Shown here in pieces: positions 12,485-33,326 of a stretch of 58,282 bases of DNA. A program made the position numbers and the translations under genes. Within the stretch, counting starts at the first letter, position 1. Each line of letters begins with the position of its first letter. A model generated the notes under the pieces. It searched no databases and was not told the origin of the DNA. It saw only the letters and a list, made by a program, of their open reading frames with translations. Source of the stretch: Cytophagales bacterium (lineage in GTDB: Bacteria; Bacteroidota; Bacteroidia; Cytophagales; ES-bin-26); the NCBI GenBank assembly GCA_014379925.1, contig JACMKY010000100.1, forward strand, positions 1 through 58,282, written 5' to 3'.

Positions 12485-14404
12485 TTACTTGGATTTGCCT
12501 TCCACTTCCTCGTAATCCACGTCGGTCACGTTGTCACCACCGGCGGCCGGACCCTCCGGCTGCGGTTGATTCGGCGCGCCGTTGGTGGCGCCGTCCCCGC
12601 TGGTACTGTACATTTCCTGCGAGGCGTTCTGCCAGGCGGTATTGAGGGCTTCCAGCGCCGAATCCACGCCGGCTACGTCCTTGGCGGCGTGCGTTTTGCG
12701 AAGCTCGGCCAGGGCGTTCTCGATGGCGGTCTTGTTGCCGGCGGAGAGTTTTTCACCGTACTCCTTCAACTGCTTTTCCGTCTGGAAAATCATCGAGTCG
12801 GCGGCGTTGAGTTTTTCCACTTTCTCCTTTTCGGTGCGGTCGGTGGCCTCGTTGGCTTTGGCCTCGGTGCGCATCCGCTCGATTTCGGCGTCGGTCAGGC
12901 CGCTGGACGCCTCGATGCGGATCTTCTGCTCCTTGCCGGTTCCCTTGTCGCGGGCCGATACGTTGAGGATACCGTTGGCGTCAATGTCGAAGGTTACTTC
13001 CACCTGCGGTACGCCGCGCGGGGCCGGTGGAATGCCGTCGAGGTGGAACCGGCCGATGGTGCGGTTGTCCTTGGCCATGGGGCGTTCGCCCTGCAACACG
13101 TGGATTTCCACGGAAGGCTGGTTGTCGGACGCCGTGGAGAACACCTCCGATTTCTTGGTGGGGATGGTGGTGTTGGCTTCGATGAGTTTGGTGAACACGC
13201 TCCCCATCGTTTCGATGCCCAGCGAAAGCGGCGTCACGTCGAGCAGCAGCACGTCTTTCACCTCACCCGTCAGCACCCCACCCTGAATGGCGGCTCCGAT
13301 GGCTACCACCTCGTCGGGGTTTACCCCCTTGGAAGGCTTTTTGCCGAAGAACTTCTCCACCTCATCCTGGATGCGGGGAATGCGGGTGGAACCACCCACC
13401 AGGATCACCTCGTCGATGTCGGCGTTCGACATCCCGGCGTTCTTCATCGCGCGGCGGCAGGGGTCCAGCGTCCGGCGGATCAGGTCGTCGCACAGTTGCT
13501 CGAACCTGGCGCGGGTCAGCTTTCGCACCAGGTGCTTGGGAATGCCGTTGACCGGCATGATGTAAGGCAGGTTGATTTCCGTTTCCGAGGAACTGGACAA
13601 TTCTATTTTCGCTTTTTCGGCCGACTCCTTGAGGCGTTGCAGCGCCATCGGGTCCTTGCGGAGGTCAATGTTTTCGTCGCTGATGAATTCCTGGGCCAGC
13701 CAGTCAATGATCTTCTGGTCGAAGTCGTCGCCGCCCAGGTGCGTGTCGCCGTCGGTGGATTTCACTTCGAACACGCCGTCGCCCAGTTCGAGGATGGAAA
13801 CGTCAAAAGTACCGCCGCCCAAGTCGAAGACGGCGATCTTCATGTCCCGGTTTTTCTTGTCCACGCCGTAGGCCAGGGCCGCGGCCGTCGGCTCGTTGAT
13901 GATCCGCTTCACGTCCAGACCGGCGATCTGACCGGCTTCCTTGGTGGCCTGCCGTTGGGCGTCGTTGAAGTAAGCCGGCACGGTGATGACCGCTTCGGTC
14001 ACGGTGGTACCCAGGTAATCCTCGGCGGTGGACTTCATCTTCTGCAGCACCATCGCCGAGATTTCCTGCGGGGTGTAGTAGCGGTCGCCGATCTTGACGC
14101 GCGGGGTATCGTTGTTGCCTTTTTCGACCGTGTAGGCGACGTTTTTCAGTTCTTCGGTCACTTCGGAATGCTTCCGACCCATGAACCGCTTGATGGATTG
14201 AATGGTATTCCGGGGATTGGTGACGGCTTGACGCTTGGCCGGATCGCCCACTTTTCGTTCGCCATTGCCACCCTCCAAGAACGCCACGATGGAAGGGGTG
14301 GTCCTTTTTCCCTCGCTGTTGGGAATCACCACCGCTTCGTTGCCTTCCATAACGGCCACGCAGGAGTTGGTGGTTCCCAAGTCAATTCCGATTATTTTTC
14401 CCAT
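12485..14404 (-). CDS. dnaK: Molecular chaperone DnaK (Hsp70)
   Basis: 639 aa. Matches [28 protein letters not shown] and [14 protein letters not shown], with a C-terminal acidic tail DVDYEEVE. This is unmistakable Hsp70. Confidence 0.99.
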
Positions 14405-14581
14405 GATTCGGTTAAGTTAATAATACTGAATGGATGTACTCAAGTGAACTGGAATCCGCGCTGAATGCGCACCCGCGGCGAGGGTTTCCATTGGCGGCGT
14501 TTCTTCCGCCCCCGGACTCGTCCGCCTTCGGGTCTGGATTCAACAAGGCGTGTGCCAAGCAACCCCGCCGTTTTCGTTAAG

Positions 14582-14594
14582 TGACATATTGTCA
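14582..14594. promoter_or_regulatory. Perfect palindrome TGACA-TAT-TGTCA, candidate operator
   Basis: Read directly. It lies 178-190 nt upstream of the dnaK start, inside a 660-nt non-coding spacer. No known regulator can be assigned. Confidence 0.3.
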
Positions 14595-15065
14595 GGCAAC
14601 GTTCCGGTCGTTGCACCCGGCCCGGGTAAAAAGCGCATTGGTGCGTAGTACGGCGACCTTGTCGAAAGGATTCAAAAAAATACATTTACGGGAAAAGAAC
14701 CTAAACGCCGCCGGAGCCGCCGGTTTTCGCCGTCCGGAATCCGCGTCCGGGGGTGGATTGCGCGGGGAAGCCTCCGGATTGAATCCGAACGGATTACGGG
14801 CCGGGTTCCGTCGGTCCGCCGTCGGGAGGTGGGGATTGCCTGACCAGAAAAAGCCCGGGCGGGTGGAAAGGGAAGACCAAAGTTGCCATTCGATTCCCAA
14901 TCATTACATTTCCTTTGCTGGTTGCCGCCCGCCGGAAGTAGGAAATTGAGGGAGCGTCCGTAAATTTCGAGTCTAATGGTCCGCCGGTCTACCCGCGGGG
15001 CGCATCCGAAATATCTTTCTTCCGGATTTCTACCGCGTAACCGGGCTTCTTAACTGAGAAAATTT

Positions 15066-15899
15066 ATGGTAATGCAGCAGGAAATAGAGATAGTTGACCT
15101 GAGGAGATTGACCGAAGTAATAAAAAATAAGTACAATTATGACTTTTCCAACTACGCTATGTCCTCCTTTAAGCGGAGGGTCCAGAGAATCATCGAACTT
15201 TACAAGTTCGCTTCCGTCGATGCCCTGATCCGGAAGTTGTCGGAGGAGCCCCCGTTTTTCCGGGAATTTCTCTCTGAGGTAACCGTCAACGTAACGGAAA
15301 TGTTTCGGGACCCGTCCTTCTGGCGGGAAATCCGCGACCACATCCTGCCCAACATCCTGCTCAACCACTCCTCCGTCAGCATCTGGCACGCGGGCTGTTC
15401 GTCGGGGGAGGAAGTCTTTTCGATGGCGATCCTGCTGAAGGAAATGGGCATCCTGGACAAGGCCAAGATCGTGGCCACCGACATTGACGTGGACGTGCTC
15501 CAGAAGGCGCGCTCCGGGACGTATCCCCTCAAGAACATGGACATCAACCAGAAGAATTACGTGCGCTTTCAGGGGAACCAGAGCCTGGACCGCTATTACC
15601 GCGAAGAGAACGGCAAAGCCATCCTGGACAAATCACTGGTGGAGGGCATTTCGTTCCGGGAACACAACCTGGTTTCGAGCGCCGTATTTTCCAAGTTCGA
15701 CCTGATTCTATGCCGCAACGTGATGATCTACTTCAACCAGAACCTGCAGAACACGGTGCTGAAGATGTTTCACGAAAGTCTTTTCAAGTACGGATACCTG
15801 ATTGTGGGTTCCAAGGAGTCGCTCATCTGGTGCGAAATCGCCAACAAGTTTATCGTCGTCAACAATGAAGAGAAAATCTACAAGAAAATCAAGGATTGA
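15066..15899 (+). CDS. cheR: CheR-type protein-glutamate O-methyltransferase
   Basis: 277 aa. It has a CheR N-terminal helical region (FSNYAMSSFKRRVQR), the SAM-binding IWHAGCSSGEEVFSMAILL, and DLILCRNVMIYF. Confidence 0.9.
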   Translation: MVMQQEIEIVDLRRLTEVIKNKYNYDFSNYAMSSFKRRVQRIIELYKFASVDALIRKLSEEPPFFREFLSEVTVNVTEMFRDPSFWREIRDHILPNILLNHSSVSIWHAGCSSGEEVFSMAILLKEMGILDKAKIVATDIDVDVLQKARSGTYPLKNMDINQKNYVRFQGNQSLDRYYREENGKAILDKSLVEGISFREHNLVSSAVFSKFDLILCRNVMIYFNQNLQNTVLKMFHESLFKYGYLIVGSKESLIWCEIANKFIVVNNEEKIYKKIKD

Positions 15900-15905
15900 A
15901 AATAG

Positions 15906-15993
15906 CGGTTGGTTGATGGTTGCGCTCGTTGGTTTTACCACGCAAACGATTGTCCGGCTGACGGAATGACCAACGACCAACCACGAACAACGG
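15906..15993. repeat. Imperfect inverted repeat built from GGTTG / CAACC units in the cheR-cheB spacer
   Basis: The left arm is CGGTTGGTTGATGGTTGCGCTCGTTGGTT (15906-15934). The right arm is GACCAACGACCAACCACGAACAACGG (15968-15993). The reverse complement of the right arm matches the left at about 20 of 26 positions. Confidence 0.7.
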
Positions 15994-15996
15994 AGA

Positions 15997-16593
15997 ATGG
16001 GGCGGTTTAACGTGAGCAACCAGTACAAAGCCATCGTAATCGGGGGTTCGGCCGGCAGTTTCCAGGGTATCAGCCGGATCCTGTCGGCGTTGCCCACCGA
16101 TTTCGAACTGCCGATCATTTTGTGCCTGCACCGGCTCAAACACGTTCGGAACGGTTTCGTGGAAGCGTTGAACATCAAGAGCGCCGTGTTGCTGGAGGAG
16201 CCGGAGGACAAGGAAAACATCAAGAAGGGAAAAATATACCTGGCTCCTTCCAATTACCACTTGTGCGTGGAACTGGGCAACACCTTCGCGCTTTCGACCG
16301 AGGAAATGGTCAACAACTCCCGTCCGTCCATCGACATCACGCTGGAAACCGCCGCCTATACTTACCGCAACCGCCTGATCGGAATCCTGCTGTCGGGCGC
16401 CAACAAAGACGGAGCCTGGGGAATGAAGAAAATCAAGGACCGCGGTGGACTGACCATTGTGCAGGAACCGTCGGAATGCATGATCGATACCATGCCCGCC
16501 GCCGCCCTGAGCCTGACGCCGGTGGACTACGTGCTGACCATCGGCGACATCATCGAATTTTTGAAAGAACTCGACCGGAAGTATAAACAATGA
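15997..16593 (+). CDS. cheB: CheB-type protein-glutamate methylesterase, catalytic domain only (no receiver domain)
   Basis: 198 aa. AIVIGGSAGS, ILCLHR and SRPSIDITL are consistent with the Ser-His-Asp triad. The length leaves no room for a REC domain. Confidence 0.88.
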   Translation: MGRFNVSNQYKAIVIGGSAGSFQGISRILSALPTDFELPIILCLHRLKHVRNGFVEALNIKSAVLLEEPEDKENIKKGKIYLAPSNYHLCVELGNTFALSTEEMVNNSRPSIDITLETAAYTYRNRLIGILLSGANKDGAWGMKKIKDRGGLTIVQEPSECMIDTMPAAALSLTPVDYVLTIGDIIEFLKELDRKYKQ

Positions 16594-17450
16594 TCACGGA
16601 TACTATGAAGCTCACTTACCGGAATGCAGGCATTTTCAGCGTTATTTTATTCGGGATCAGCAGCCTGTTCATCGGCTATCTGGTTTACCGGCTGCCCGCT
16701 GACGTAAGTACCCGGCTGAGGGATTTGGACCAGGCCCAACGACAGGGCTTATCCCAGGTAACGGGCCGCCTGGGCCTGGTGGTGGGTATTGGCCTGGCCA
16801 GCGGCCTGGCCGCCATCCTTTCCTTGGTGCTCGGCGCCAGGAGACGGGAGCTATCCGTGGCCTTGCCCGTGTCATTCGCCCCGGAAGCCCTGCCGTCCGT
16901 CACCGTGGGGGTTGCGCCGCAAAACGTCACCGAGCGCCTCGAACCGGTGGAACAGGCCTGGCGAAAGGGAGACGCCGCCACCCGGCTCGAGCGCGTGCTG
17001 CGGACGTTGTGCAACCAACTCGAAGCCTGCCAGGGTGCGTTGTTCCTGACCACCGAATCGGAAGGAAGGTGGTTCATCGATTTTCGCGCCGGCTACGCGT
17101 ACGGCCTACCCGAAAGCGGGCGGCTGCGCTTTGAATTCGGCGAGGGACTGGCCGGACAAGTCGCCAAGGAAGGACAGGGCGTGCACCTTTCCTCGGTACC
17201 TGATCACTACATCGTCGTCTTGTCGGGCTTGGGCAAGGCGTCTCCCAACCACCTCATCATCGCGCCCATCCCCGGTTCCGGGGAATTGGCCCCGGTGGCG
17301 GGCGTGTTGGAAATCGCGTCCTTCCGGGCGTTCACTGCCGCCGACGAGGAACTCATCCGACGGGTGGCGGCCCTGGTTGCCACCGAACAGGCGGGCATCC
17401 GGGAGGCAGCCGACCAGACCGAGGTCGTTGACGCCGGGCCGGTGCACTGA
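16590..17450 (+). CDS. Two-TM membrane protein with a C-terminal GAF domain
   Basis: 286 aa. The TM helices are IFSVILFGISSLFIGYLVY and LGLVVGIGLASGLAAILSLVLG. GAF-like motifs are GEGLAGQVAKEGQGVHL and VAGVLEIASF. The ATG overlaps the cheB TGA (ATGA). Confidence 0.8.
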   Translation: MITDTMKLTYRNAGIFSVILFGISSLFIGYLVYRLPADVSTRLRDLDQAQRQGLSQVTGRLGLVVGIGLASGLAAILSLVLGARRRELSVALPVSFAPEALPSVTVGVAPQNVTERLEPVEQAWRKGDAATRLERVLRTLCNQLEACQGALFLTTESEGRWFIDFRAGYAYGLPESGRLRFEFGEGLAGQVAKEGQGVHLSSVPDHYIVVLSGLGKASPNHLIIAPIPGSGELAPVAGVLEIASFRAFTAADEELIRRVAALVATEQAGIREAADQTEVVDAGPVH

Positions 17451-17617
17451 CGGGCAGATTGGCGGGTAAGAATGTTTGACAGTCAACCCTTTAAAATACG
17501 ATACCGGGCAAGTCAAATTTGCCTGACCAACGATTCATTTCTGAAAACGGATGCACCCATTCACTCACCGGCCCGTCGGCGCATCCATTTATCGGCCCAC
17601 CAACCCATCGCCGTATT

Positions 17618-20600
17618 ATGTTAAAGAAAATCAGGATTGGCAGCAAGATCATTGTACTGGTGCTTTCGATGGTACTGGTGGCGGTGCTGTCGGTCGGTTA
17701 CCTGGCGTTTGACCTCAGCAAGCAATCCCTGGGCGCCAAGTACCAGGAATCCCTGCGGGTCATTGCGTACGCCAAGGCCGAAAAACTGGAAAGCTTCTTT
17801 CGGCAGGTCGAATCCGGACTCGCCTGGGGGCAGTCGGCGGGTGCCGCCGCTTGGTCGGCCGACAGTACGGAAGCCGGTCTGGCCGCGGCCAGCGGCCTGG
17901 ACGCCGCACTTGCCACGATCACCCGCCTCCACGGATACAGCAACGTGTATTTGACCAGCCGCGAGGGAAAAATTTTGTACCGGATCAATTCTGCCATCCG
18001 GCGGCCGACGGTCGACAGTTTGCTGAACGGCACTGACCCGGGCGGATTTGCGTCGGGCCAGGAGCTTCGCCCGGATTCCGTGTACTACAGCCGGATATTC
18101 AAGCAAGCCGACGGTCTTTTCCTGCTGGCGGCATCCTCCGTGCCGCGAACGGACGGCAATCCCGCCGGGATGCTGGTGTACGAAATTCCCCTGGAGTCGG
18201 TCTTTCGGCTGGTGCGGGATACGACGGGCTTGGGCGCGACGGGCGAGGTGGCACTGGGGCGGTTCGACGGCACCCAAATCACGTACCTTACCCTGCTGGG
18301 AGCCGGTCCGCCGGGAATTCCGGTGACCCCGGCCAGGCTGTCGAAAGCCGCGGGACGTTCGGTAAGCCTGCCCATGCGGGAAGCCGTAAACGGGAAAACC
18401 GGCTCCGGCCTCGCGGCCGACGAACGGGGTACGGAAACCCTGGCGGCCTGGTGTCCGGTGGTACCCCTTCGCGGGGGGCTGGTCGTGAAGGTGGACGCCG
18501 CCGAGGTGTTTGGGGCGGCCACGCAACTGAGAAACGCCCTGTTGCTGGCGGGTCTGGCGGTTCTGTTGGTGTCGCTGGGCGTGAGTCTGGCCCTGGCCTA
18601 CCTGCTCACCTCCCCGTTGCTGGCCTTGCGATCAACCATGGTGCAATTGGGACAGGGCGTACTGCCCGACCGGCTGGCCAGCCGGAGTGAGGACGAGATC
18701 GGGGAGATGACCGACACGGTCAACAGCCTGGTGGACGGCTTGAAGAAGACGGCCAACTTCGCCCACAAGATCGGCAACGGAAATTTCGACGCGGACTTCA
18801 AGCCCATGAGCGGAAACGACACGCTGGGACTGGCCCTGCTGGGCATGCGCGACAACATTCAGGATTCGGCCAAGCGCGACGAAGAACGCAACTGGATCGT
18901 GACGGGCGTGGCCGAAGTGGGCGACATTCTGCGCGCCACCGACAACCTCGAAGACCTGGGCGAACGAATTACCGCTTACCTCACCCGCAAGATCAACGCC
19001 GTGCAGGGCGCCCTCTACGTGGTCAACGACGACGACCGCGACCAGGTGTTTCTGGAGATGATTGCCAGCTACGCCTACAACAAGAAAAAATACCTGCGGG
19101 CCCGATTCCGCTTTGCCGAAGGGCTGGTGGGGCAGGCCGCCATTGAGCAGGATACGCTGCTGCGCACCGAAATCCCCGACCAGTACGTCACCATCACGTC
19201 CGGCCTGCTGGGCGACCGCAAGCCCAAGTGCCTGTTGATTGTGCCGCTGATTACGGTGATCGGCAGCGAACGGGTGGTGTACGGGGCACTGGAAATGGCG
19301 GGATTCGAGAAGTTCAGTCCGCGCAACGTACAATTCGTCAAGGAGATCAGCGAAATCATTGCGCGTACGGTATTCAACATCAAGGTGAACGCCACCACCC
19401 GGACGCTGCTGCAGATGTCGCAGAAGCAGAGCGAGGAGTTGCAGCAACAGCAGGAAGTGCTCCGCCAGAATGCCGAGGAGATGGAGGCCACCCAGGAAGA
19501 ACTCAAGCGCTCGAACGGGGCCCTGGAAGACCAGGTGGAGGAAGTGAACCGCACGCAGAAGCGGATGCAGGTGCTGCTCGAAAACGCCTCCGAGGTAATC
19601 ACCATCTACGAGCGCGACGGCCGCATCCGCTACATCAGCTCCTCGGTCGAGCGCATCCTGGGGTATTCGCCCAACGAACTCATCGGTCTGCGGGACGTGG
19701 TGTACGTGCATCCGCTGGGGGTGGACGACTACGAGCGCATGTTCCGGGAACTGCTCGAACATCCCGACCAGCGGGTGACGGTCCAGTTCAGCTACCAGGC
19801 CAAGAACGGTGACCTGATCTGGCTCGAAGCCAGCGGCATCAACCTGCTGCACGATCCGGCCATCGCGGGCTTGGTGCTCAACACCCGCGACATCACCGAG
19901 CGGCGGCGGGCCGAAAAGGAGTCCCGCATGCGCGGCCAGATGCAGGCGCTTTCCGAGAATTCCCCCGACCTGATCACCCGCTTCAACAAGGAAGGCAAGG
20001 TGTTCTACATCAACCCGGTGATCGAGTCCTACACCGGGCGCAGCAAGGAAGAGTACCTGCTGAAATCCATCGAAGAGGTGATGCTCAACGCCACCGTCGT
20101 CGAATCGTGGGGGCGCATTCTGCGGCAGGTGATGGACAACAACGAGAAGGTTTCGACCGAAATGAACTTCCCGTCGGTGATGGGCGATTGCGTAATGCAG
20201 GTGAACGCCATCCCCGAATACAACGAGAACCAGGGCATTGAGTCCGTGCTGTTGGTGTCGCACGACATTACCGACCGGAAGCGGATCGAGCTGGAAATCC
20301 AGGCCAAGAGCAAGAAGATCACCGAAAGCATCAACTACGCCAAGCGGATCCAGGGAGCCATCCTGCCCAACACGGCCCACATTCAGGGAGTGTTCAGCCA
20401 GTCATTCATCCTCTACAAACCCCGCGACGTGGTCAGCGGCGACTTCCCCTGGTTCCAGCAAAAGGGCGACGACGTGTACATCGCGGCGGTGGACTGCACC
20501 GGCCACGGCGTACCCGGGGCGTTGATCTCGCTGATCGGCTACTTCCTGCTCAACAACATCGTCACCAACCGCGACGCCTCCGACCCGGGGCTTATCCTCG

Positions 20601-21073
20601 ACCAACTCGACGAGGGCGTGACCCGGACCCTGAAGCAGGACAGCTCCGAGACCGCCACCCGCGACGGGATGGACATCGCCCTGTGCCGCATCAACCAGCG
20701 CGCCGGAACGTTGGAATACGCCGGGGCGCACCGGCCGCTGTATTTTGTCCGCAACGGCGAACTGACGGAGGTGAAAGGCGATAAGTTTCCCGTCGGCGGT
20801 GCCCAGTACAAAACCCGCGTCGGTTTCACCACCACCCGGATGCGCATCCAACCGGGCGACGCGGTCTTTTTCTGTTCCGACGGCTTTCCCGACCAGTTCG
20901 GCGGGCCGGACGACCGCAAGTTCTCGCCCAAGCGCATCCGCGACCTGATCACCGAAAACATCGCCGCCGGCATGGAAGAACTCAACCACACGCTGGACCG
21001 CGAGTTTGAGGAATGGAAGGGACCCTTCAACAAGCAAACTGACGACGTTTTGATGATAGGTATTAAATTCTAA
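17618..21073 (+). CDS. Sensory PP2C (SpoIIE-type) Ser/Thr phosphatase, SiaA-like: TM, Cache-like periplasmic domain, TM, HAMP, GAF, coiled coil, 2x PAS, PP2C
   Basis: The ORF is open from 17519, but the Met at 17618 (MLKKIRIGSKIIVLVLS...) starts at the first TM. The second TM is LLLAGLAVLLVSLGVSLALAYLL, followed by HAMP (EDEIGEMTDTVNSLVDGL) and GAF (AEGLVGQAAIEQDTLL). Two PAS domains are marked by ENASEVITIYERDGRIRYISSS and ENSPDLITRFNKEGKVFYINP. PP2C motifs are VSGDFPWF, AAVDCTGHGVPGAL, RDGMDIAL and FFCSDGFPDQFGG. Confidence 0.9.
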   Translation: MLKKIRIGSKIIVLVLSMVLVAVLSVGYLAFDLSKQSLGAKYQESLRVIAYAKAEKLESFFRQVESGLAWGQSAGAAAWSADSTEAGLAAASGLDAALATITRLHGYSNVYLTSREGKILYRINSAIRRPTVDSLLNGTDPGGFASGQELRPDSVYYSRIFKQADGLFLLAASSVPRTDGNPAGMLVYEIPLESVFRLVRDTTGLGATGEVALGRFDGTQITYLTLLGAGPPGIPVTPARLSKAAGRSVSLPMREAVNGKTGSGLAADERGTETLAAWCPVVPLRGGLVVKVDAAEVFGAATQLRNALLLAGLAVLLVSLGVSLALAYLLTSPLLALRSTMVQLGQGVLPDRLASRSEDEIGEMTDTVNSLVDGLKKTANFAHKIGNGNFDADFKPMSGNDTLGLALLGMRDNIQDSAKRDEERNWIVTGVAEVGDILRATDNLEDLGERITAYLTRKINAVQGALYVVNDDDRDQVFLEMIASYAYNKKKYLRARFRFAEGLVGQAAIEQDTLLRTEIPDQYVTITSGLLGDRKPKCLLIVPLITVIGSERVVYGALEMAGFEKFSPRNVQFVKEISEIIARTVFNIKVNATTRTLLQMSQKQSEELQQQQEVLRQNAEEMEATQEELKRSNGALEDQVEEVNRTQKRMQVLLENASEVITIYERDGRIRYISSSVERILGYSPNELIGLRDVVYVHPLGVDDYERMFRELLEHPDQRVTVQFSYQAKNGDLIWLEASGINLLHDPAIAGLVLNTRDITERRRAEKESRMRGQMQALSENSPDLITRFNKEGKVFYINPVIESYTGRSKEEYLLKSIEEVMLNATVVESWGRILRQVMDNNEKVSTEMNFPSVMGDCVMQVNAIPEYNENQGIESVLLVSHDITDRKRIELEIQAKSKKITESINYAKRIQGAILPNTAHIQGVFSQSFILYKPRDVVSGDFPWFQQKGDDVYIAAVDCTGHGVPGALISLIGYFLLNNIVTNRDASDPGLILDQLDEGVTRTLKQDSSETATRDGMDIALCRINQRAGTLEYAGAHRPLYFVRNGELTEVKGDKFPVGGAQYKTRVGFTTTRMRIQPGDAVFFCSDGFPDQFGGPDDRKFSPKRIRDLITENIAAGMEELNHTLDREFEEWKGPFNKQTDDVLMIGIKF

Positions 21074-21219
21074 GAAAACGCATTTTATGTCGTTGGGAAT
21101 GTCCGGTAATTTGCTTGGTCTCCGAAAATCCACCGCGTCGGGTGCCGGCTGGCTTTTCTCCAACCAACGGATTCATCAACAATTGACAAAATCACCTCTG
21201 AAAACAAAGCAAAGGAACT

Positions 21220-21771
21220 ATGAAGTATGTATATGATTTGCACACTATCCTGTTGCAACGCAACCTGATACTGGTTTACGAGGGAGAATTTACCCAGGAA
21301 ATCACCAAAGCGGTGCTCTCCATGGCCGAACGCAACATGGAGTCGATGGGAGAGGAGTCGAACATCAAGCGCAAGGTGTTTAACGTGATGGTGGAGTGCC
21401 TGCAAAACATCTGCAAGCACGCCGACGAGTACGACCCGGACGCTCAGGTGACCAACAAGGCCATCTTCATGATCGGCAAGCAAGAGGAGGAATACGTCAT
21501 CACCACCGGCAACCCGATCCTCAAACAGAAGGTAGACAGCCTGCACAGCAAGCTCGAGCAGATCAACAGCCTGGACAAGGAAGGATTGAAAGCCCTTTAC
21601 AAGGATATCATCAAAAACGGCGACTTGTCCGAAAAGGGCGGGGCCGGGCTGGGATTCGTGGACATGGCCCGCAAGTCGGGACAGAAACTGGAGTTCGATT
21701 TCCAGCCCATGACCGACCAATGGTCGTTCTTCTCCCTGAAAACCACCATTCCGCGGACCGGTGTCGAATGA
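21220..21771 (+). CDS. SiaB-like (anti-sigma/HATPase-type) Ser/Thr protein kinase
   Basis: 183 aa. LILVYEGEFTQEITKAVLSMAE, VMVECLQNICKHA and the G-box-like KGGAGLGFVDMARKSG resemble SiaB/DUF6272 proteins (recalled). It sits between the PP2C and DUF1987 genes as in sia loci. Confidence 0.75.
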   Translation: MKYVYDLHTILLQRNLILVYEGEFTQEITKAVLSMAERNMESMGEESNIKRKVFNVMVECLQNICKHADEYDPDAQVTNKAIFMIGKQEEEYVITTGNPILKQKVDSLHSKLEQINSLDKEGLKALYKDIIKNGDLSEKGGAGLGFVDMARKSGQKLEFDFQPMTDQWSFFSLKTTIPRTGVE

Positions 21772-21862
21772 GTGGAGGAGTTTGAAACGCACGAATGCAT
21801 CGAGTGCATCGGGTGCCCCCGTGTCGTCGGTACCCTGGGTCCTCCCCAAACTTCCAAAACGC

Positions 21863-21913
21863 GTCCGTCGATGCCACTCATCGACTCATTACTCATCCAC
21901 TCACATACTCATA
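21863..21913. repeat. Copy D of a dispersed intergenic repeat (TCCGTCGATGC... followed by ACTCATC-type units)
   Basis: The sequence GTCCGTCGATGCCACTCATCGACTCATTACTCATCCACTCACATACTCAT shares TCCGTCGATGC and the CTCATC(C/A)ACTC units with the copies at 30911-30978, 37953-38062 and 54936-55006. Confidence 0.7.
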
Positions 21914-21929
21914 AAATTTATCAAGCCAA

Positions 21930-22292
21930 ATGGAAATCATTAACCTGGAAGGCACCGAAGACACGCCCAAGATTCTGTTGAACAAACCCAACGGCATTTT
22001 TGAAATCTCCGGCCGGTCGCTCCCCGAGGACACTGCCGAGTTCTACAAGCCCGTTTTGGAGTGGCTCGAGCGCTACACGGCCGATCCCAACCCCGAAACC
22101 CCGTTCGTCTTCAAGCTGGAGTACTTCAACACGGCTTCCTCTAAGCTCATCCTCGACGTGTTGTCCAAGCTGGAACGGATCAAGGGAACCACCATTAGCT
22201 GGTACCACCACGAGGACGACGAGGACATGGAAGAGGCGGGTTCGGAATTTTCCGAACTGGTGGAAGTGGAGTTTGAGTTTAAGACGTACTGA
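21930..22292 (+). CDS. DUF1987 / SiaC-like partner-switch phosphoprotein
   Basis: 120 aa. MEIINLEGTEDTPKILLNKPNGIFEISGRSLPEDTAEFYKPVLEWL...FKLEYFNTASSKL is the characteristic DUF1987 pattern. It has an acidic tail HHEDDEDMEEAG. Confidence 0.85.
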   Translation: MEIINLEGTEDTPKILLNKPNGIFEISGRSLPEDTAEFYKPVLEWLERYTADPNPETPFVFKLEYFNTASSKLILDVLSKLERIKGTTISWYHHEDDEDMEEAGSEFSELVEVEFEFKTY

Positions 22293-22296
22293 AGGA

Positions 22297-22351
22297 AGTT
22301 GCAGGTTACAAGTTGCAGGTTGACTGGGTTACAGTCCACAAGTTGCAGGTC
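22297..22351. repeat. Three dispersed copies of AGTTGCAGGT (reverse complement of the ACCTGCAAC heptamer motif)
   Basis: Copies lie at 22297-22306, 22311-22320 and 22341-22350, immediately after the siaC-like stop. They are the inverted partner of the array at 22431-22480. Confidence 0.85.
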
Positions 22352-22430
22352 ACGAGAAGGGGGAGGCATTTGAATCTTTTCTGCGTGTATTGATCCGTCA
22401 AAGAAACTTTTGCTGACCAACAACCGGCAA

Positions 22431-22480
22431 CCCAACCAACCTGCAACCTGCAACCTGCCAACCTGCCAACCTGTAACCTA
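22431..22480. repeat. Heptamer/octamer array (CAACCTG)x3 then (CCAACCTG)x2 running into the next start codon
   Basis: CAACCTG units lie at 22437-22443, 22444-22450 and 22451-22457. CCAACCTG units lie at 22458-22465 and 22466-22473. The ATG of the next ORF is at 22483. Confidence 0.9.
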
Positions 22481-22482
22481 CC

Positions 22483-22920
22483 ATGAGTGAGGAAATCCTG
22501 AAAGCCCTGACCCAGCTCTTTGCCATCATCACCAAGCAGGACGGGGGGGCCACGGAAGTAGAGCGCCGCTTCGTCACCCAGTTCTTCGGGCAGGAACTCA
22601 ACCAGGATTCGGTGAAGGCGTACGTGGCCCTTTACGAGGAATTTCTGGGGGAAGGCGGGTTGAACGTCGGCCGAAAGCAAGGGCAGCCTCACCACCGTCA
22701 AAGATTCCGTCCGTACGCTGGGCCTCTGCAAGAAAATCAACAAGACGCTCACCCAAAAGCAAAAAGTGATCGTGCTCATCCGGTTACTGGAACTGGTGAG
22801 CTCGGACAAGAATTTCACCCCGCAGCGGATGGGCATCATCGACACGGTTTCGACCGTGTTCAACATCGAGAAGGAAGACTACAAGGTCATCGAGCGCTTC
22901 GTGCTCAACGCCCGCAGTGA
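22483..22920 (+). CDS. N-terminal TerB-like helical segment belonging to the downstream ABC transporter but out of frame with it; only about 22483-22665 looks like genuine coding sequence
   Basis: MSEEILKALTQLFAIITKQDGGATEVERRFVTQFFGQELNQDSVKAYVALYEEFLGEGG is protein-like. After that the frame becomes R/H/Q/P-rich, while the +1 frame continues the same domain. See the frameshift finding. Confidence 0.5.
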   Translation: MSEEILKALTQLFAIITKQDGGATEVERRFVTQFFGQELNQDSVKAYVALYEEFLGEGGLNVGRKQGQPHHRQRFRPYAGPLQENQQDAHPKAKSDRAHPVTGTGELGQEFHPAADGHHRHGFDRVQHREGRLQGHRALRAQRPQ

Positions 22921-25648
22921 GGACCTGCAAGAATTCGAGGAGGTGCTGGTGGCCAGCAGCGACACCACCTCCCGCCACCCCCAAGCCAAGCACATTCACT
23001 TACACGATCTCCACGGGGAAATCATTTTCTTGCGGGTGCGGAGCGTAGACATCTACTTCGTGAAGTACGCGGGCACCGAGGATATTTTGCTGAACGGACT
23101 GATGATCAAGCCGTTTCAAACGTACCTCTTCTCCCACGGCAGCAGCATCAAGACGCCCAAAAGCCCTCCCTTGTACTACAGCGAGGTGATCAGCCAGTTT
23201 ATGAGCGGCCACCAGGACTACCGGCTCTCTTTTCTGGCGCATAACCTGGAATTTCGGTTTCCCAACGGCGGCATCGGCCTGCGCGACGTGAGCCTGCTGG
23301 AAGGGTCTTCCAAGCTCATCGGCATCATGGGTGGCAGCGGGGCGGGCAAGACCACGCTGCTGAACGTGCTGGCCGGCATCGAGAAGCCCCACCAGGGGGA
23401 AATCCTGATCAACAATTTCAACATTCACACCCAACAAGACAAGCTCCAGGGCGTGATCGGTTACATTGCCCAGGACGACCTGCTGATCGAGGAACTGACC
23501 GTTTACGAAAACCTCTACTACAACGCCCGGCTCTGCTTCGAGACGTATTCGGAGGCGCAGCTGGAAAAGGCGGTTATGAACGTGCTCACCAGCCTGGGCC
23601 TGGAGCAAACCCGCAACCTGCGGGTGGGCAGCGTGCTGGAAAAAACCATCAGCGGCGGCCAGCGCAAGCGGCTCAACATTGCCCTCGAGCTGATTCGCGA
23701 ACCGGCGGTCATGTTCGTCGACGAACCGACTTCCGGCCTTTCCTCGCGCGATTCGGAAAACGTGATCGACCTGCTCAAGGAACTCACCCTGAAGGGCAAG
23801 CTCATCTTCGTGGTCATCCACCAGCCTTCGTCCGACATCTACAAGATGTTCGACAAGATCTTCATCATGGACAAGGGCGGGTATCCGATCTACTACGGCA
23901 ATCCCGTGGAAGCGGTCACCTACTTCAAGCGGGCGACCAACCAGGTAGACAGCGAGCGGGGACAGTGCGCCGCCTGCGGCAACGTGAATCCTGAGCAGAT
24001 TTTCAACATCATTGAGGCCAAGGTGGTCGACGAATACGGCCAGTTTACCCAGAAGCGGAAGATGACTCCTCTGCAGTGGAACGAGTACTACATGAAGAAG
24101 GGACGGCTGGAAAACCTGCCCCTGTATAACGAAGTGCCGCCCCAGACGTTGAGCCTGCCCTCGCGCCTCAAGCAAACGCTGATTTTTGCCACCCGCGATT
24201 TTTTCTCCAAGGTCAGCAACCGCCAGTACCTGGCCATCAACCTGTTGGAGGCTCCCCTGTTGGCGGTGCTGCTGGCGTTCATCATCCGCTACCAGAATAC
24301 GCCCGGGGGATCGGGCGAATATACATTCCGCTACAACGACAACATTCCGGCCTACATCCTGGTGGCCATTCTGGTGGCCCTCTTCATGGGACTCACCGTG
24401 AGCGCGGAGGAAATCATCCGGGACCGGAAGATCCTGCGGCGGGAGGCGTTTCTGAACCTGAGCCGGACCAGCTACCTTTCCTCCAAACTGCTGATCCTGT
24501 TTGCGCTCTCCGCCGTCCAGACCCTGAGCTTCGTGCTCATCGGCAATGCCATCCTCGAAATTCACGGCATGACGTTCAGCTACTGGGTGATGCTGTTCAC
24601 CGTTTCGTGTTTCGCCAACGTGCTCGGCCTGAACATTTCGGCCTCCTTCAACTCGGCCGTGACCGTGTACATCATGATTCCGCTGCTGCTCATTCCGCAG
24701 ATGATCCTGAGCGGGGTGATTTTCAGCTTCGACAAGTTGAACGATGACCTGAGCACGAAGGGAAAGGTGCCGTTGGTGGCCGACCTGATGGCCTCGCGCT
24801 GGGGCTTCGAGGCGCTGGCGGTGGAACAATTCACGAATAACCCGTACCAGGCCCCTTACTACGAACTCGAGAAAACGCAGAGCGAAGCCTACTACAAGAA
24901 CACGTACCTGATTCCTGAACTGCTCGAAAAGCTGGAAACGTCGGTGGTCAATCACCGCGCAACCGAAGATTCAGTAAAAACCGTCCTCATCCGGGACCTG
25001 GCCATCCTCCGCAATGAGATCAACGCCGAACCCCACCGGGAGGGGCTGACGCTGGACGTGAACGATGCGCTCACGTCGGCCAATTTCACTCCGGTAGTGG
25101 CCGATCAGGTCCGGGCGTACCTCGGATTGCTGAAGGAAACGTATTCGGCGCAGTTCAACCAGGCCGACGTCAAAAAGGAGCAGATGATGACCTTTTTCGA
25201 GAGCGACCCGGCGCACGCCTACCGGGTGACCGAATACAAGAACCGCTACTTCAACGAGGCGCTGGCCGACCTGGTGAAGAATGCCACCGTGAAGGACCGC
25301 ATTACCGAACACCAGGGGCGTCTTTACCAACAGATCGACCCGATCTTTCAAGCGCCCAAGCCCGACGCATTTTTCCTGGACTACCGCACGCATTTCCTTT
25401 CGCCCAGCAAGCAGTTCGCGGGGCTGACCCTGCCCACCTTTTACTTCAACCTCGGGATTGTGTGGCTTACGTCCGCCTTCTTGTACCTGACCCTGTACCT
25501 GGAAGCGTTCCGCAACGCGTTCGCCCTGTTCGGCAAACTGAGTTTCGGTTGGGTGCGGGCCTGGGCGGACACGGCGGCCCGGTTGCTGGAAGGCATCAGG
25601 CAGTGGCGGCCCCGCAAACCCGCGCCCCGCGTCGAGCCGGCGGAGTGA
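22766..25648 (+). CDS. ABCG-type ABC transporter, fused ATPase and ABC-2 permease, with N-terminal regulatory extension
   Basis: 960 aa from a GTG. It has Walker A GIMGGSGAGKTT, signature ISGGQRKRLNIALEL and Walker B AVMFVDEPTSGLS, followed by about 6 TM helices. Homology-like sequence continues upstream to 22662 in the same frame, so the listed GTG start is probably not the true N-terminus. Confidence 0.88.
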   Translation: MIVLIRLLELVSSDKNFTPQRMGIIDTVSTVFNIEKEDYKVIERFVLNARSEDLQEFEEVLVASSDTTSRHPQAKHIHLHDLHGEIIFLRVRSVDIYFVKYAGTEDILLNGLMIKPFQTYLFSHGSSIKTPKSPPLYYSEVISQFMSGHQDYRLSFLAHNLEFRFPNGGIGLRDVSLLEGSSKLIGIMGGSGAGKTTLLNVLAGIEKPHQGEILINNFNIHTQQDKLQGVIGYIAQDDLLIEELTVYENLYYNARLCFETYSEAQLEKAVMNVLTSLGLEQTRNLRVGSVLEKTISGGQRKRLNIALELIREPAVMFVDEPTSGLSSRDSENVIDLLKELTLKGKLIFVVIHQPSSDIYKMFDKIFIMDKGGYPIYYGNPVEAVTYFKRATNQVDSERGQCAACGNVNPEQIFNIIEAKVVDEYGQFTQKRKMTPLQWNEYYMKKGRLENLPLYNEVPPQTLSLPSRLKQTLIFATRDFFSKVSNRQYLAINLLEAPLLAVLLAFIIRYQNTPGGSGEYTFRYNDNIPAYILVAILVALFMGLTVSAEEIIRDRKILRREAFLNLSRTSYLSSKLLILFALSAVQTLSFVLIGNAILEIHGMTFSYWVMLFTVSCFANVLGLNISASFNSAVTVYIMIPLLLIPQMILSGVIFSFDKLNDDLSTKGKVPLVADLMASRWGFEALAVEQFTNNPYQAPYYELEKTQSEAYYKNTYLIPELLEKLETSVVNHRATEDSVKTVLIRDLAILRNEINAEPHREGLTLDVNDALTSANFTPVVADQVRAYLGLLKETYSAQFNQADVKKEQMMTFFESDPAHAYRVTEYKNRYFNEALADLVKNATVKDRITEHQGRLYQQIDPIFQAPKPDAFFLDYRTHFLSPSKQFAGLTLPTFYFNLGIVWLTSAFLYLTLYLEAFRNAFALFGKLSFGWVRAWADTAARLLEGIRQWRPRKPAPRVEPAE

Positions 25649-25770
25649 TCGTACGAAAAACATACACCCGTACCGAATGGGCCCGCTTGGGTCTGCCGGT
25701 AAAAAAGCAAATCCCCAACTTTAGGTCGCGAAACGTTTTACGCTGGTCGTGGAACGGAAACCCCAGTCAC

Positions 25771-26679
25771 ATGAAAAAAACGTACCTCATTCTCCTCGCC
25801 GCCGCCGTGCTGGCGGGCTCAGGAACCGGATGCGAAAGCAACCGAATACCGGATCAACAGGCGTTTGCCGCCGCCGACACCACCACCAAGCCGACCACCG
25901 TCAAGGTTTCCAAGGAAGTGCTGTCGGACATCATCCAATCCATCCCCTCGCCGCTGGAAGTATCCTTTTTGATCAAGGACATGGGCGTCAAGTACGACAA
26001 GACGTCCCTCAACTCACTCAGCAACATTGCCAATTACAACACCAACTACCGGAAGGCATTGAACCTGGGCATCTACAGCACCGACCTGGGCTACGCCAAC
26101 GTGTACGGGCAAACGCAGGACGCCCTCAATTACGTGGGTTCGGTGAAAGAGATGGCCGACGGGTTGAGCATCGGACAGTTCTTCGATTTCGCCACCATCA
26201 AACGACTGGCCTCCAACAGCAGCAACCTCGACTCGCTGCTGCTGGTGACCACCACCAACTTCGAGAAGATCAACGTCCACCTGCAGGAACAAGATCGCGC
26301 CAACCTGAGCATCCTCATCCTGACGGGGGGCTGGCTGGAGGCTTTACACCTGACCTGCGAAGTGGTGAAGGACCACCCGAACGAGGCGCTCCGGGAGCGG
26401 ATCGGCGACCAGAAGGTGATCCTGGGCCGCTTGCTCACCCTGCTCAAATACTACGAAGCCGATCCCAGCATCCGCACGCTGCTGGCCGACCTGACGGAAA
26501 TGCAGAAGCATTACGACAAAGTGCAGGTGACCAAGGAATACAAGGAATCGACCACCAAGGAAGTAAACGGGATGCTGCAGGTGGTGGACAACAGCATCAC
26601 CAAGGTCACGGTGACCGACGAGGACCTGAACAACATCTCGGCTTCATCGGCCTCCATCCGAAGCAAAATCATCAATTAA
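25771..26679 (+). CDS. Hypothetical lipoprotein, predicted all-helical
   Basis: The ORF is open from 25462 (overlapping the ABC gene), but the Met at 25771 gives a lipobox MKKTYLILLAAAVLAGSGTGC. I recognise no family motif. It is co-directional with and close to the ABC gene. Confidence 0.75.
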   Translation: MKKTYLILLAAAVLAGSGTGCESNRIPDQQAFAAADTTTKPTTVKVSKEVLSDIIQSIPSPLEVSFLIKDMGVKYDKTSLNSLSNIANYNTNYRKALNLGIYSTDLGYANVYGQTQDALNYVGSVKEMADGLSIGQFFDFATIKRLASNSSNLDSLLLVTTTNFEKINVHLQEQDRANLSILILTGGWLEALHLTCEVVKDHPNEALRERIGDQKVILGRLLTLLKYYEADPSIRTLLADLTEMQKHYDKVQVTKEYKESTTKEVNGMLQVVDNSITKVTVTDEDLNNISASSASIRSKIIN

Positions 26680-26701: not shown

Positions 26702-27139
26702 ATGAGAACCGCAAGTAAATCGTTAGGGGCGTTTTTGGTGCTTTTCTTCGCTGGTTCGGTGGCTTTTGCCCAGTGTGAGGCGGACAAGTTCACCATCAAG
26801 TGCATGGAAAAGCTGGCGACCGGCTACACGTTCATGAAAAGCTACAAGATCGACGGCAACGGGGGAAGCAAACCCAAGGTGGAGTATTCGTACGTGTTCA
26901 GCAAGGGAACCAACTACATGGTCACGCTGGCCAACAAGGACCCGGAGTTGAAGGGAATGTCGCTGAGCCTCTACGACTCGAGCCGTCGGCTGGTGGCTTC
27001 CAACAAGGTAGACAACAAGTATTTTTCGGCCATCGGCTACACCTGCGGGGCCACGGGCATTTATTACTTAACTTTTACTTTCGACGAGACCCAGGACTAC
27101 TGCGCCGCCGCCGTGCTGGGATTCAATTCGAAGAAATAA
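26702..27139 (+). CDS. Small secreted Cys-containing hypothetical protein
   Basis: 145 aa with signal peptide LGAFLVLFFAGSVAFAQC and four further Cys. It starts 22 nt after the lipoprotein gene and a terminator follows. Confidence 0.7.
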   Translation: MRTASKSLGAFLVLFFAGSVAFAQCEADKFTIKCMEKLATGYTFMKSYKIDGNGGSKPKVEYSYVFSKGTNYMVTLANKDPELKGMSLSLYDSSRRLVASNKVDNKYFSAIGYTCGATGIYYLTFTFDETQDYCAAAVLGFNSKK

Positions 27140-29629: not shown

Positions 29630-30754
29630 TTAGCTTTGTTCCGCGAAATACATATCCACCTCGCCCTTGTTCTTGGCGGAGATCCGACCCCGGTGGGTAC
29701 ACGTGAATTGATCCTTCACCAACGCGTAGGTAGCCCCCGAGATGTTCACCTTGCCGGTTTGTCCGCTCGATTCCATCCGGCTGGCGATGTTGACCGCATC
29801 GCCCCAAATGTCGTAGGCGAACTTTTTTTTCCCCACCACGCCCGCCACCACGGGTCCGGTATGGATGCCCACGCGCAATTCCCAGGCTGGCTCGCCCCGG
29901 GCGATTTTCTCGGCGTTGATTCCTTCCATGAAGGCCTGGATGGCCAGGCCCGCCCGCACGGCATCGCGGGCGTGCGAAGAATTCGCCACCGGAATTCCTC
30001 CCGCGCACATGTAGGAATCGCCGATGGTCTTGATTTTTTCCAGGTTGTGCCGTTCCGTGATGTCGTCGAAGGCCACGAAGCAACGGTTCAGTTCTTCCAC
30101 CAGCGTCTGCGGTGGGAGCTGTTCGGCGATCCGGGTGAAGTCCCGGAAGTCGGTGAAGAGCACCGATGCCGACGCGTAGTGCTTGGGCGTGGCGAACCCC
30201 TGGTCCTGCAACTCCCGGGCGGTTTCGGCGGGCAGGATGTTGAGCAGGAGGGCTTCGATCTGCTCCTTCTGGCGATTTACCTCGGCCGTGCGTTCCACCA
30301 CCTTGTGTTCCAGGGTTTCGTTGGCCTGTTGCAACTCCCCGATCAACTGGCGGTTCCGGCGGCGCAGCGACAAGGCCTCCATGGCGTTGTCGATGGTAAT
30401 CTTCAGCTCATCCTTGTCCCAGGGCTTGGTGATGTAGCGGTATACCTTGCCGGTGTTGATGGCTTCGATGATGGCTTCCACGTCGCTGAAGCCAGTCAGG
30501 ATCATGCGGATGTTTTCGGGTTCCTCGGGCAGTTGTTGCAGGAACTGGATGCCCGTCATGTTGGGCATGCGCTGGTCGGTGATGACGAGGGAAATGGTTT
30601 CCCGTTCGATGATGTCCAGGCCTTCTTTCCCGGAAACGGCCGTAAAAATGGAGTAAAACCGCCGGAAAGCCGACTTGAAGACCAACAGGTTGTCGGCCTC
30701 GTCGTCTACGTAAAGAATCTTGTGTTTTTCGCTGACAGCTTCCATAACGAACAA
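29630..30754 (-). CDS. Response-regulator receiver fused to a class III adenylate cyclase
   Basis: The REC domain has KILYVDDEADNL and LVITDQRMPNMTG, followed by a coiled-coil linker. Cyclase motifs are SVLFTDFRDFT, EKIKTIGDSYM and YDIWGDAVNIASRME. The Lys/Asp specificity pair points to ATP as substrate. Confidence 0.9.
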   Translation of the reverse strand: MFVMEAVSEKHKILYVDDEADNLLVFKSAFRRFYSIFTAVSGKEGLDIIERETISLVITDQRMPNMTGIQFLQQLPEEPENIRMILTGFSDVEAIIEAINTGKVYRYITKPWDKDELKITIDNAMEALSLRRRNRQLIGELQQANETLEHKVVERTAEVNRQKEQIEALLLNILPAETARELQDQGFATPKHYASASVLFTDFRDFTRIAEQLPPQTLVEELNRCFVAFDDITERHNLEKIKTIGDSYMCAGGIPVANSSHARDAVRAGLAIQAFMEGINAEKIARGEPAWELRVGIHTGPVVAGVVGKKKFAYDIWGDAVNIASRMESSGQTGKVNISGATYALVKDQFTCTHRGRISAKNKGEVDMYFAEQS

Positions 30755-30978: not shown

Positions 30979-30980
30979 TC

Positions 30981-33248: not shown

Positions 33249-33326
33249 TGGCAGCGTGTACAGTTTAGTCGTTGGCGGTTGGCCAAGTAGTCGGGGCGTC
33301 CTTGCCATCCCCAACGGGGCGTTTCC

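Follow-up and report, generated by a model that had tools for sequence, protein, structure and literature searches.

What do a CheR methyltransferase and a CheB methylesterase act on when their genes lie beside a phosphatase-based partner switch and not beside a chemoreceptor array? This question is raised by a gene cluster in a stretch of 58,282 nucleotides (nt) from a Cytophagales bacterium (contig JACMKY010000100.1 of assembly GCA_014379925.1; hereafter the window). An earlier note, made from the letters alone, had described there a unit of six co-directional genes (15066-22292), namely cheR, a receiver-less cheB, a gene for a GAF protein with two transmembrane (TM) segments, a gene for a large sensor phosphatase ending in a PP2C domain, and relatives of siaB and siaC, and had suggested that the methylation enzymes act on the phosphatase. 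The analysis presented here confirms and extends that observation and supports the interpretation in part. We have moderate confidence in what we regard as the best explanation of the whole, namely that the cluster is a conserved eight-gene signaling module of the Cytophagales in which a phosphatase switch is tuned by methylation and works together with an exporter.

The arrangement of the genes is conserved far beyond chance. At least 593 hits were confirmed in a profile scan of a collection that holds one genome for each species, and the best 80 loci were analyzed with 10-kb flanks each; the window proteins were mapped onto these loci, and the counts take only loci whose contig extends far enough. 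Downstream of cheR and in the same direction we found cheB in 72 of 73 testable loci, the part of the phosphatase gene that encodes the GAF domain and the following helix in 64 of 65, the PP2C domain in all 63, siaB in 62 of 63 and siaC in all 60, and beyond these six genes a gene for an ABC transporter of about 1027 amino acids (aa) in 58 of 58. A lipoprotein ortholog was present in 52 loci, on the same strand and starting about 51 bp after the ABC gene. The order recurs in essentially all 80 loci, each from a different species; homologs of CheR occur in many Cytophagales at 72-86% identity, and its orthologs across the order are 60-86% identical, with 38% of the positions conserved in at least 95% of 81 sequences. 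Synteny of the upstream housekeeping genes extends to no more than 33-44 of 64 loci, and in the window another gene (dnaK) is the neighbor on that side, so that the cluster behaves as a unit. One locus (L039, 15960-17846) is unique among those analyzed in that siaB is missing after the phosphatase gene and an unrelated ORF (open reading frame) of 283 aa (16071-16922) stands in its place. Searches of the literature, whose coverage is incomplete, for the cluster, its motif strings, SiaC/DUF1987 in Bacteroidota and CheR/CheB in Cytophaga or gliding bacteria found no description of the cluster, of the methylation motif described below or of the receptor-like family that shares it.

Most of what the earlier note had said about gene content stands. 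The six ORFs were found where it had placed them, all on the + strand, its six domain calls hold in Pfam and NCBIfam, and the test that it had set in advance, the synteny of cheR and cheB with the PP2C/SiaB/SiaC trio in related genomes, came out in its favor in almost all sampled relatives. The short spacers that it reported are real for the overlap between cheB and the GAF gene and for the orthologous loci (medians of 18, -1, 20, 93, 32 and 108 bp in the same order) but not for the window itself, where the spacers from cheR through the exporter gene are 97, -4, 167, 146, 158 and 190 bp. The unit was drawn too small, since its conserved form also includes the ABC transporter and the lipoprotein gene, and it can no longer be called a system without output, as a TerB/FHA-like exporter of the ABCG type and a lipoprotein are co-conserved immediately downstream. 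Genes were called from the strong bias in third-position G+C (GC3) of real genes and the remaining coding-like ORFs were scanned with Pfam; throughout the 58 kb these scans agree with the note in finding no MCPsignal domain (the mark of methyl-accepting chemotaxis proteins, MCPs), CheA, CheW, stand-alone CheY or GGDEF domain. The absence of a cyclase is correct for diguanylate cyclases and not for cyclases in general, as the window does encode a protein with a REC domain and a class-III nucleotidyl cyclase (29630-30754, minus strand).

Both enzymes of chemoreceptor adaptation look active from their sequences. The best solved relative of CheR is the Bacillus subtilis enzyme (5FTW, 8e-33), CheB aligns to the catalytic domain of CheB in 3SFT (2.5e-29), and the columns of the CheB catalytic triad (Ser18, His45, and Asp138) are invariant in 74 of 74 orthologs, so that Pfam, the PDB alignments and this triad all point to intact catalytic residues. 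The orthologs of CheB have a median length of 197 aa and consist of the methylesterase domain alone, without the canonical N-terminal receiver; therefore, any feedback must come from the conformation of the substrate, as has been proposed for chemoreceptors, and not from phosphorylation of CheB.

The likely substrate of CheR and CheB, as far as sequence can tell, is the helix that follows the GAF domain of the sensor phosphatase. In 58 orthologs this helix is near-invariant (...ELQEKQEVLRQNAEEM[E/Q/A]ATQEELxR[S/T]N..LE[E/D]QIEEVNRTQKRMQLLLENASE), and its core motif, LRQNAEEMxATQEELxR[ST]N, stands directly after the GAF domain. It contains two Glu-Glu pairs, E620/621 and E627/628, spaced exactly seven residues and each followed by a hydrophobic core residue; the window phosphatase reads EEMEAT and EELKRS, seven residues apart. 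The first pair fits the classical consensus for chemoreceptor methylation, E-E-x-x-A-S/T (E-E-x-x-A-T in the window), which may be compared with the sites LEETAAS and MEQLTAT of Tsr. In an AlphaFold2 model of phosphatase residues 425-781 (mean predicted local distance difference test, pLDDT, of 84.6) the motif is part of an uninterrupted helix of 65 residues that begins where the GAF domain ends and leads to the first PAS domain, a modeled geometry of the signaling-helix type, with the second pair in a lower-confidence part of this monomer model. A predicted long helix that carries Glu/Gln pairs in heptad register together with the E-E-x-x-A-S/T consensus is what a methyl-accepting substrate would be expected to have. 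The motif is also specific: the regular expression EE[LMIV].[AST][ST].[EQ][EQ][LMIV], applied to the six-frame ORFs of the 80 loci (653,645 residues), gave 78 matches versus 0.02 expected from residue shuffles. All 78 fall in the phosphatase or in a receptor-like gene upstream of cheR, and therefore the only motif carriers in these loci are the genes flanking cheR-cheB.

The rest of the phosphatase is consistent with a receptor whose output is a fused PP2C, as HisKA, HATPase, and REC domains are absent from it. The only PDB match of its PP2C domain is SiaA of Pseudomonas aeruginosa (6K4E, 7.5e-38 over 259 aa), and the metal-site motifs are conserved among orthologs; because the score against NF038263 (1.3e-58) is 199 bits and the cutoff 700, we consider it a relative of SiaA and not an equivalog. 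The GAF domain, the post-GAF helix and the PP2C domain are its most conserved parts, and there is hardly any conservation in the periplasmic sensor domain (1% of its positions reach at least 95%), whose match to dCache_1 is below threshold (28.7 bits vs. a cutoff of 45). The ATG at 17618 was favored as start over the TTG at 17519 in view of the median ortholog length of 1149 aa.

The receptor-like gene upstream of cheR was found by homology in 28 of the 68 loci with enough upstream sequence. It is co-directional, stops some tens to some hundreds of bp short of cheR and encodes a membrane sensor, a GAF domain, the helix and a coiled-coil tail, with no enzymatic domain; the motif EEEMRQNMEEL.ATQE is present in 27 of these 28. 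A search with the GAF-helix segment showed that both genes belong to a very large family (10,095 cluster representatives at E ≤1e-3 and 2,800 at ≤1e-30), many members of which hold two to nine tandem copies of the module. Over 417 occurrences the family profile reads Q-E-E-E-[LM]-R-Q-N-[ML]-E-E-[LM]-x-A-T-Q-E-E-[MLI]-x-R, and the acidic pairs at positions -7, 0 and +7 are EE in 376, 401, and 332 of them, respectively; minor variants (EQ, QQ, and DE) recall the sites that are encoded as Gln in chemoreceptors. Among 53 sampled representatives the only enzymatic output was SpoIIE/PP2C (five proteins), and no HisKA, HATPase, GGDEF, or MCPsignal domain was seen. The closest relatives of one tandem member have no domains other than PAS, GAF, and Cache and belong to genera that bear the cluster (for example Fulvivirga, Marivirga, Ohtaekwangia, Microscilla, Chryseolinea, and Chryseosolibacter). 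Three output-less receptor genes, examined in assemblies that are complete or large, stand alone among housekeeping genes, which is usual for MCP genes, and their neighborhoods contain no CheR/CheB or other signaling partners. Three giant proteins encoded outside the window (P0135, P0140, and P0152; 1989-2405 aa) have up to nine tandem GAF-signaling-helix modules, with EExxAT in each.

These data bear on what the earlier note had said about the substrate. Its choice of the HAMP/coiled-coil phosphatase as best candidate is strengthened by the near-invariant chemoreceptor-type motif on the post-GAF helix. Its remark that the enzymes have no canonical substrate is correct in that MCPsignal was not found in the window, and it has to be qualified by the existence of a large receptor-like family that bears the motif and has a member just upstream of cheR in part of the loci. 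The alternative substrate that it had offered, the 2-TM GAF protein, was discarded: this protein (TM segments at aa 14-32 and 63-81) has neither a coiled coil nor the Glu-pair motif, and its orthologs are only 27-46% identical. Its GAF domain shares the signature GEGL.GQ / SGLG / E.ASF with that of the phosphatase, and the protein may modulate the GAF dimer.

All three components of a SiaABC switch are present, that is, a PP2C homologous to SiaA, a kinase of the SiaB family, and a SiaC with Thr68. SiaB matches the P. aeruginosa protein (6KKO_A, 2.7e-14) and SiaC aligns to P. aeruginosa SiaC in 6KKO and 6K4F, with FNTASS over LNTSS. The stretch N67-T68-A-S-S is invariant in 64 of 64 SiaC orthologs, which also conserve an acidic C-terminal tail (DEDMEEAGSEF), and its Thr aligns to T68 of P. 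aeruginosa, the residue that is phosphorylated by SiaB and dephosphorylated by SiaA (PMC7647112). The diguanylate cyclase SiaD is missing, as GGDEF was not found in the window and it is the ABC exporter gene that follows siaC in 58 of 58 loci.

This co-conserved exporter is, we infer, the likely target of SiaC. Its full-length orthologs (1027 aa) have a TerB-like domain (around the Pfam cutoff), an unassigned domain of about 90 aa, ABC_tran and ABC2_membrane, and in its transporter portion the protein resembles ABCG/White (255 bits against TIGR00955, which is under the cutoff). In the N-terminal part Pfam reported TerB at threshold only and no FHA domain, and the only match of its profile to the PDB was the FHA domain of Mek1, a weak one (E = 0.019). 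An AlphaFold2 model (pLDDT 79, predicted template modeling score 0.74) predicts a helical domain followed by an all-beta domain, and the top Foldseek matches of the latter are FHA domains (Mek1, CEP170, Rad53, PNKP, kanadaptin, and DgcB), with probabilities of up to 0.97 and target TM-scores of 0.43-0.52 but E-values of at least 0.09. Because the canonical residues for binding phospho-Thr (Gly-Arg, Ser-x-x-His, and Asn-Gly-Thr) are not evident in the alignment, we call this domain FHA-like and no more. As for other outputs, the REC-cyclase was considered and rejected, since it lies 7 kb away on the opposite strand and has its own kinase.

Between siaC and the exporter gene there are tandem arrays of the heptamer (CAACCTG)n, one directly before the ABC start codon (22437-22479) and another, of three inverted copies, just past the siaC stop (22297-22352; RNA fold of 22290-22490, z = -2.0); a 14-mer of the array occurs eight times versus 0.02 expected. 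Because the array is found also at the 5' end of the window (38-79), we consider it a dispersed intergenic repeat, and the inverted repeat was discarded as a regulatory element specific to the cluster.

The coordinates of the cluster are given in Table 1.

Table 1. Genes and sites of the cluster, with positions in the window and the matches on which each assignment is based
Feature	Position (nt)	Strand	Evidence or remarks
cheR, SAM (S-adenosylmethionine)-dependent protein-glutamate O-methyltransferase, 277 aa	15066..15899	+	PF01739 1e-45, CheR_N
cheB, receiver-less methylesterase/deamidase, 198 aa	15997..16593	+	PF01339 2e-48; REC domain absent
2-TM GAF protein, 286 aa	16590..17450	+	GAF_2 1e-11; start overlaps cheB stop (ATGA)
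Sensor phosphatase, 1151 aa: TM, periplasmic Cache-like, TM, HAMP, GAF, signaling helix, PAS, PAS, PP2C	17618..21073	+	Pfam, NCBIfam
Signaling helix, phosphatase aa 591-650	19388..19567	+	Candidate methyl-accepting motif QNAEEMEATQEELKRSN
Glu620/621, phosphatase helix	19475-19480	+	Candidate acceptor pair
Glu627/628, phosphatase helix	19496-19501	+	Candidate acceptor pair
siaB-family protein kinase, 183 aa	21220..21771	+	NF038262 186.6 bits (cutoff 85); Pfam DUF6272 3e-46
siaC-family phosphoprotein, 120 aa	21930..22292	+	PF09345 4e-38; putative phospho-acceptor Thr68 at nt 22131-22133
ABCG-type ABC exporter, N-terminal TerB-like helical and FHA-like beta domains	22483..25648	+	ABC_tran, ABC2_membrane; frameshifted
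Putative lipoprotein, 302 aa, eighth conserved gene	25771..26679	+	Signal peptide and Cys; no Pfam family

Several other features of the window were recorded. Directly 3' of the conserved lipoprotein gene there is a gene for a small secreted protein (26702-27139; 145 aa, with a signal peptide and no Pfam or NCBIfam match). About 10 kb upstream of the cluster, exopolysaccharide export genes occupy 97-4840 on the minus strand and encode a Wzx-type flippase, a Wzc-like chain-length/tyrosine-kinase protein and a Wza-like Poly_export/SLBB protein. A separate cluster for cyclic-nucleotide signaling (29630-37240, minus strand) comprises the REC-containing class-III adenylate/guanylate cyclase, a 7TMR-DISM histidine kinase, an MFS-HEAT-cNMP-binding protein of 1101 aa and an HD-domain protein, and a REC-LytTR regulator is encoded at 46997-47767. 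A region of about 1.5 kb (40030-41550) has no convincing ORF, Pfam match, tRNA, or Rfam family; in the window as a whole Rfam and tRNA scans gave no matches. The G+C content of the window is about 60%, and the named relatives of the cluster are all Cytophagales.

The gene content, the synteny, the conservation of catalytic and acceptor residues, the motif with its specificity, and the helical geometry, which are the observations made here, could be brought together as follows. A signal from a ligand or from the envelope, sensed by the variable periplasmic Cache-like domain, would change the state of the HAMP and GAF domains, and the long signaling helix would relay this state through the two PAS domains to the SiaA-type PP2C of the same polypeptide, which together with the SiaB kinase would set the phosphorylation of SiaC at Thr68, that is, the position of the partner switch. 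These steps, from sensor to PP2C to phosphorylated SiaC, are suggested by homology and conserved residues. SiaC in one of its states would then bind the TerB/FHA-like N terminus of the exporter and alter export, with the lipoprotein acting in the envelope. The adaptation step, all of which we infer, would consist of methylation of E620/621 and E627/628 by CheR and their demethylation by CheB, and would shift the gain or set-point of the phosphatase, in the way that methylation acts on chemoreceptors and on RsbK of Bacillus cereus; the same two enzymes would probably also modify the many paralogous PAS-GAF-helix receptor-like proteins that bear the motif. CheR and CheB would in this way probably give a non-chemotaxis pathway an adaptation ("memory") step. 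More tentatively, and as an idea that we think possible but would not favor, the gliding, non-flagellated Cytophagales may run a chemosensory-like network independent of CheA, in which dispersed PAS-GAF-helix receptors (with up to nine modules and no enzymatic output) that bear methylation sites of the chemoreceptor type, served by a single CheR/CheB pair, converge on one PP2C/SiaB/SiaC switch that replaces CheA/CheY and gates the FHA-like ABC exporter.

A number of points weigh against the methylation-tuned switch, and they have to be considered together with the other ways of reading the cluster. For every member, methylation is a prediction; what stands after the second Glu pair is R-[S/T] and not A-[S/T]; and signaling helices are conserved for structural reasons even when they are unmethylated, so that conservation of the motif alone is no proof. 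The FHA assignment is weak by sequence, by fold and by its binding residues, as described above, and the exporter gene of the window itself is frameshifted between nt 22664 and 22672: its first ~60 codons (MSEEILKALTQLF...) are read in a different frame from the remainder (ORFs 22483-22920 and 22766-25648), with an in-frame TGA at 22661-22663 preceding the junction, and the orthologs are uninterrupted. This may be an assembly error of the metagenome-assembled genome (MAG) or a real pseudogenising lesion. Terminator predictions in 14300-25900 (13 found vs. 15.1 expected) are uninformative on co-transcription, and the sigma-70 promoter model is unsuited to Bacteroidota. Finally, one locus from an uncultured Roseivirgaceae MAG (L080, 9971-13482) is a natural reduced variant that retains cheR, a gene for a 533-aa PAS-PAS-PP2C protein, siaB, siaC and the ABC gene; its phosphatase has no sensor, HAMP, GAF, or helix, and cheB and the TM-GAF gene are also missing, so that either its CheR acts on some other protein or the cluster is in decay there. 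If CheR acts on something else in general, the dispersed output-less PAS-GAF-helix receptors could be the main substrates, the phosphatase being a downstream hub (e.g., through mixed coiled-coil oligomers) and not the key methyl acceptor. The size of the family with its repeated modules, the restriction of the top matches to PAS, GAF, and Cache domains in the same genera, the scattering of these genes as MCP-like orphans, PP2C as the only enzymatic output in the sample and the retention of cheR in L080 without a helix-bearing phosphatase all speak for this reading, which we consider unlikely. Against it, the motif is nearly invariant in the helix of the phosphatase itself, and such hetero-oligomers are hypothetical; it also overlaps with the methylation-tuned switch rather than excluding it.

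Alternatively, CheR and CheB could serve canonical MCPs or a Che-like pathway elsewhere in the genome, their adjacency to the switch reflecting co-regulation or history. By Pfam and PDB similarity both are typical members of their families, the census of MCP, CheA, and CheW covers the window only, so that such genes elsewhere are possible, and L080 keeps cheR without the GAF-helix region. Against this stand the near-total synteny and tight spacing across genera whose CheR proteins share no more than 60-75% identity, the lack of MCPsignal, CheA, and CheW in the 58-kb window and of MCPsignal among the 53 family representatives, and the confinement of the chemoreceptor-type motif, within the loci, to adjacent proteins, which together make this option improbable. 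We give a shade less credit to the proposal that the helix is a purely structural coiled-coil transmitter with unmodified Glu pairs and that the enzymes act on SiaC, SiaB, the exporter N terminus, or the TM-GAF protein. The broad conservation of unmethylated signaling helices mentioned above and the conserved acidic tail of SiaC would agree with it; however, inspection of the other cluster proteins revealed no heptad motif of the E-E-x-x-A-S/T type, its only carriers are the phosphatase and the receptor gene adjoining cheR, and the post-GAF signaling helix is precisely the methylated element in the sole analog studied experimentally (PMC4574943). It is highly improbable, last, that the gene order reflects phylogenetic inertia among related genomes and not a functional unit: some collinearity is indeed shared, as several upstream housekeeping genes are also syntenic, but these flanks are kept in 50-70% of the loci and the cluster in 97-100%, it is intact in the window despite a different upstream context, the start/stop overlap and short spacers point to operon organization, and PP2C, SiaB, and SiaC belong to a partner switch that has been demonstrated experimentally in P. 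aeruginosa.

The earlier note knew of no experimental description of a coupling between CheR-type methylation and a PP2C partner switch, but this coupling is not unprecedented. In Bacillus cereus, RsbM (BC1007, annotated as CheR) methylates the hybrid kinase RsbK, of architecture CHASE3-HAMP-GAF-S-helix-HK-REC, on its post-GAF signaling helix, and it is an orphan without a cognate esterase, deletion of the chemotaxis CheB having left sigma-B unaffected (PMC4574943). RsbK in turn controls the REC-PP2C protein RsbY and the partner switch RsbV/RsbW, by which sigma-B is set free (PMC4574943, PMC12848376). In architecture the cluster resembles this system in having an extracytoplasmic sensor followed by HAMP, GAF, and signaling helix, an adjacent CheR-type gene, and a PP2C with a partner switch downstream. 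It differs in that a dedicated CheB would make the modification reversible, in that the sensor is fused to the PP2C instead of signaling through HK-REC to a separate REC-PP2C, and in that SiaB/SiaC with a probable exporter target take the place of RsbV/RsbW and sigma-B. Literature searches for other methylated signaling helices, again of incomplete coverage, found only the B. cereus work.

The closest relative of the switch itself is SiaABCD of P. aeruginosa (PMC7647112, PMC8457831), with which it shares a membrane-anchored HAMP and SiaA-type PP2C, a SiaB kinase, Thr68 of SiaC and the same A-B-C order. In contrast to SiaABCD, SiaD is absent, the phosphatase has additional GAF, signaling-helix and PAS-PAS parts, CheR, CheB, the TM-GAF protein, the ABC exporter and the lipoprotein are added, and none of the three proteins reaches the cutoff of the NCBIfam equivalog model for SiaA, SiaB, or SiaC. 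As to the possible output, Rv1747 of Mycobacterium tuberculosis is an FHA-bearing ABC exporter that is regulated by Thr phosphorylation through PknF (PMC3138270). Both are ABC exporters encoded beside Ser/Thr phosphorylation machinery, with an FHA-type cytoplasmic N terminus in Rv1747 and a putative FHA-like one here; Rv1747 has two bona fide FHA domains and a Hanks-type kinase, whereas here one weakly supported FHA-like domain follows a TerB-like domain and the SiaB/SiaC switch replaces the kinase. With the adaptation of Escherichia coli Tsr and Tar the cluster has in common the catalytic domains of CheR and CheB and, as candidate acceptors, heptad-spaced Glu-Glu pairs on a long helix; unlike in those systems, MCPsignal, CheA, and CheW are missing from the window, a Ser/Thr phosphatase stands in place of a histidine kinase as output, and CheB, lacking the canonical receiver, is not subject to phospho-feedback from a kinase. 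In Wsp-type systems homologs of CheR and CheB also adapt a pathway other than flagellar rotation, around a core of MCP, CheW, and CheA that ends in a response-regulator cyclase; the cluster is similar in tying CheR/CheB to a non-flagellar pathway and different in that MCP, CheW, CheA, and the response-regulator cyclase are all absent from it.

Reversible methylation of glutamate is the textbook memory device of bacterial chemotaxis and, to our knowledge, RsbK/RsbM of B. cereus, which has no esterase, is the only system other than MCP/CheA arrays in which experiments have shown it. The cluster described in this work offers a widespread case, with at least 593 hits in a collection of one genome per species, that has a complete writer/eraser pair and an acceptor site predicted so precisely that the hypothesis can be tested directly. 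It also offers a SiaB/SiaC switch apparently wired to an exporter rather than to a cyclase, and a very large undescribed family of receptor-like proteins. If the proposal is correct, methylation-based adaptation would be a transferable module, open to combination with Ser/Thr phospho-switches, and the cluster would provide a way to study how signals from the environment are processed in gliding Bacteroidota. Furthermore, if the CheA-independent network existed, it would represent a second, independently assembled system of sensory adaptation, and possibly the missing behavioral control for gliding and surface colonization in these bacteria.

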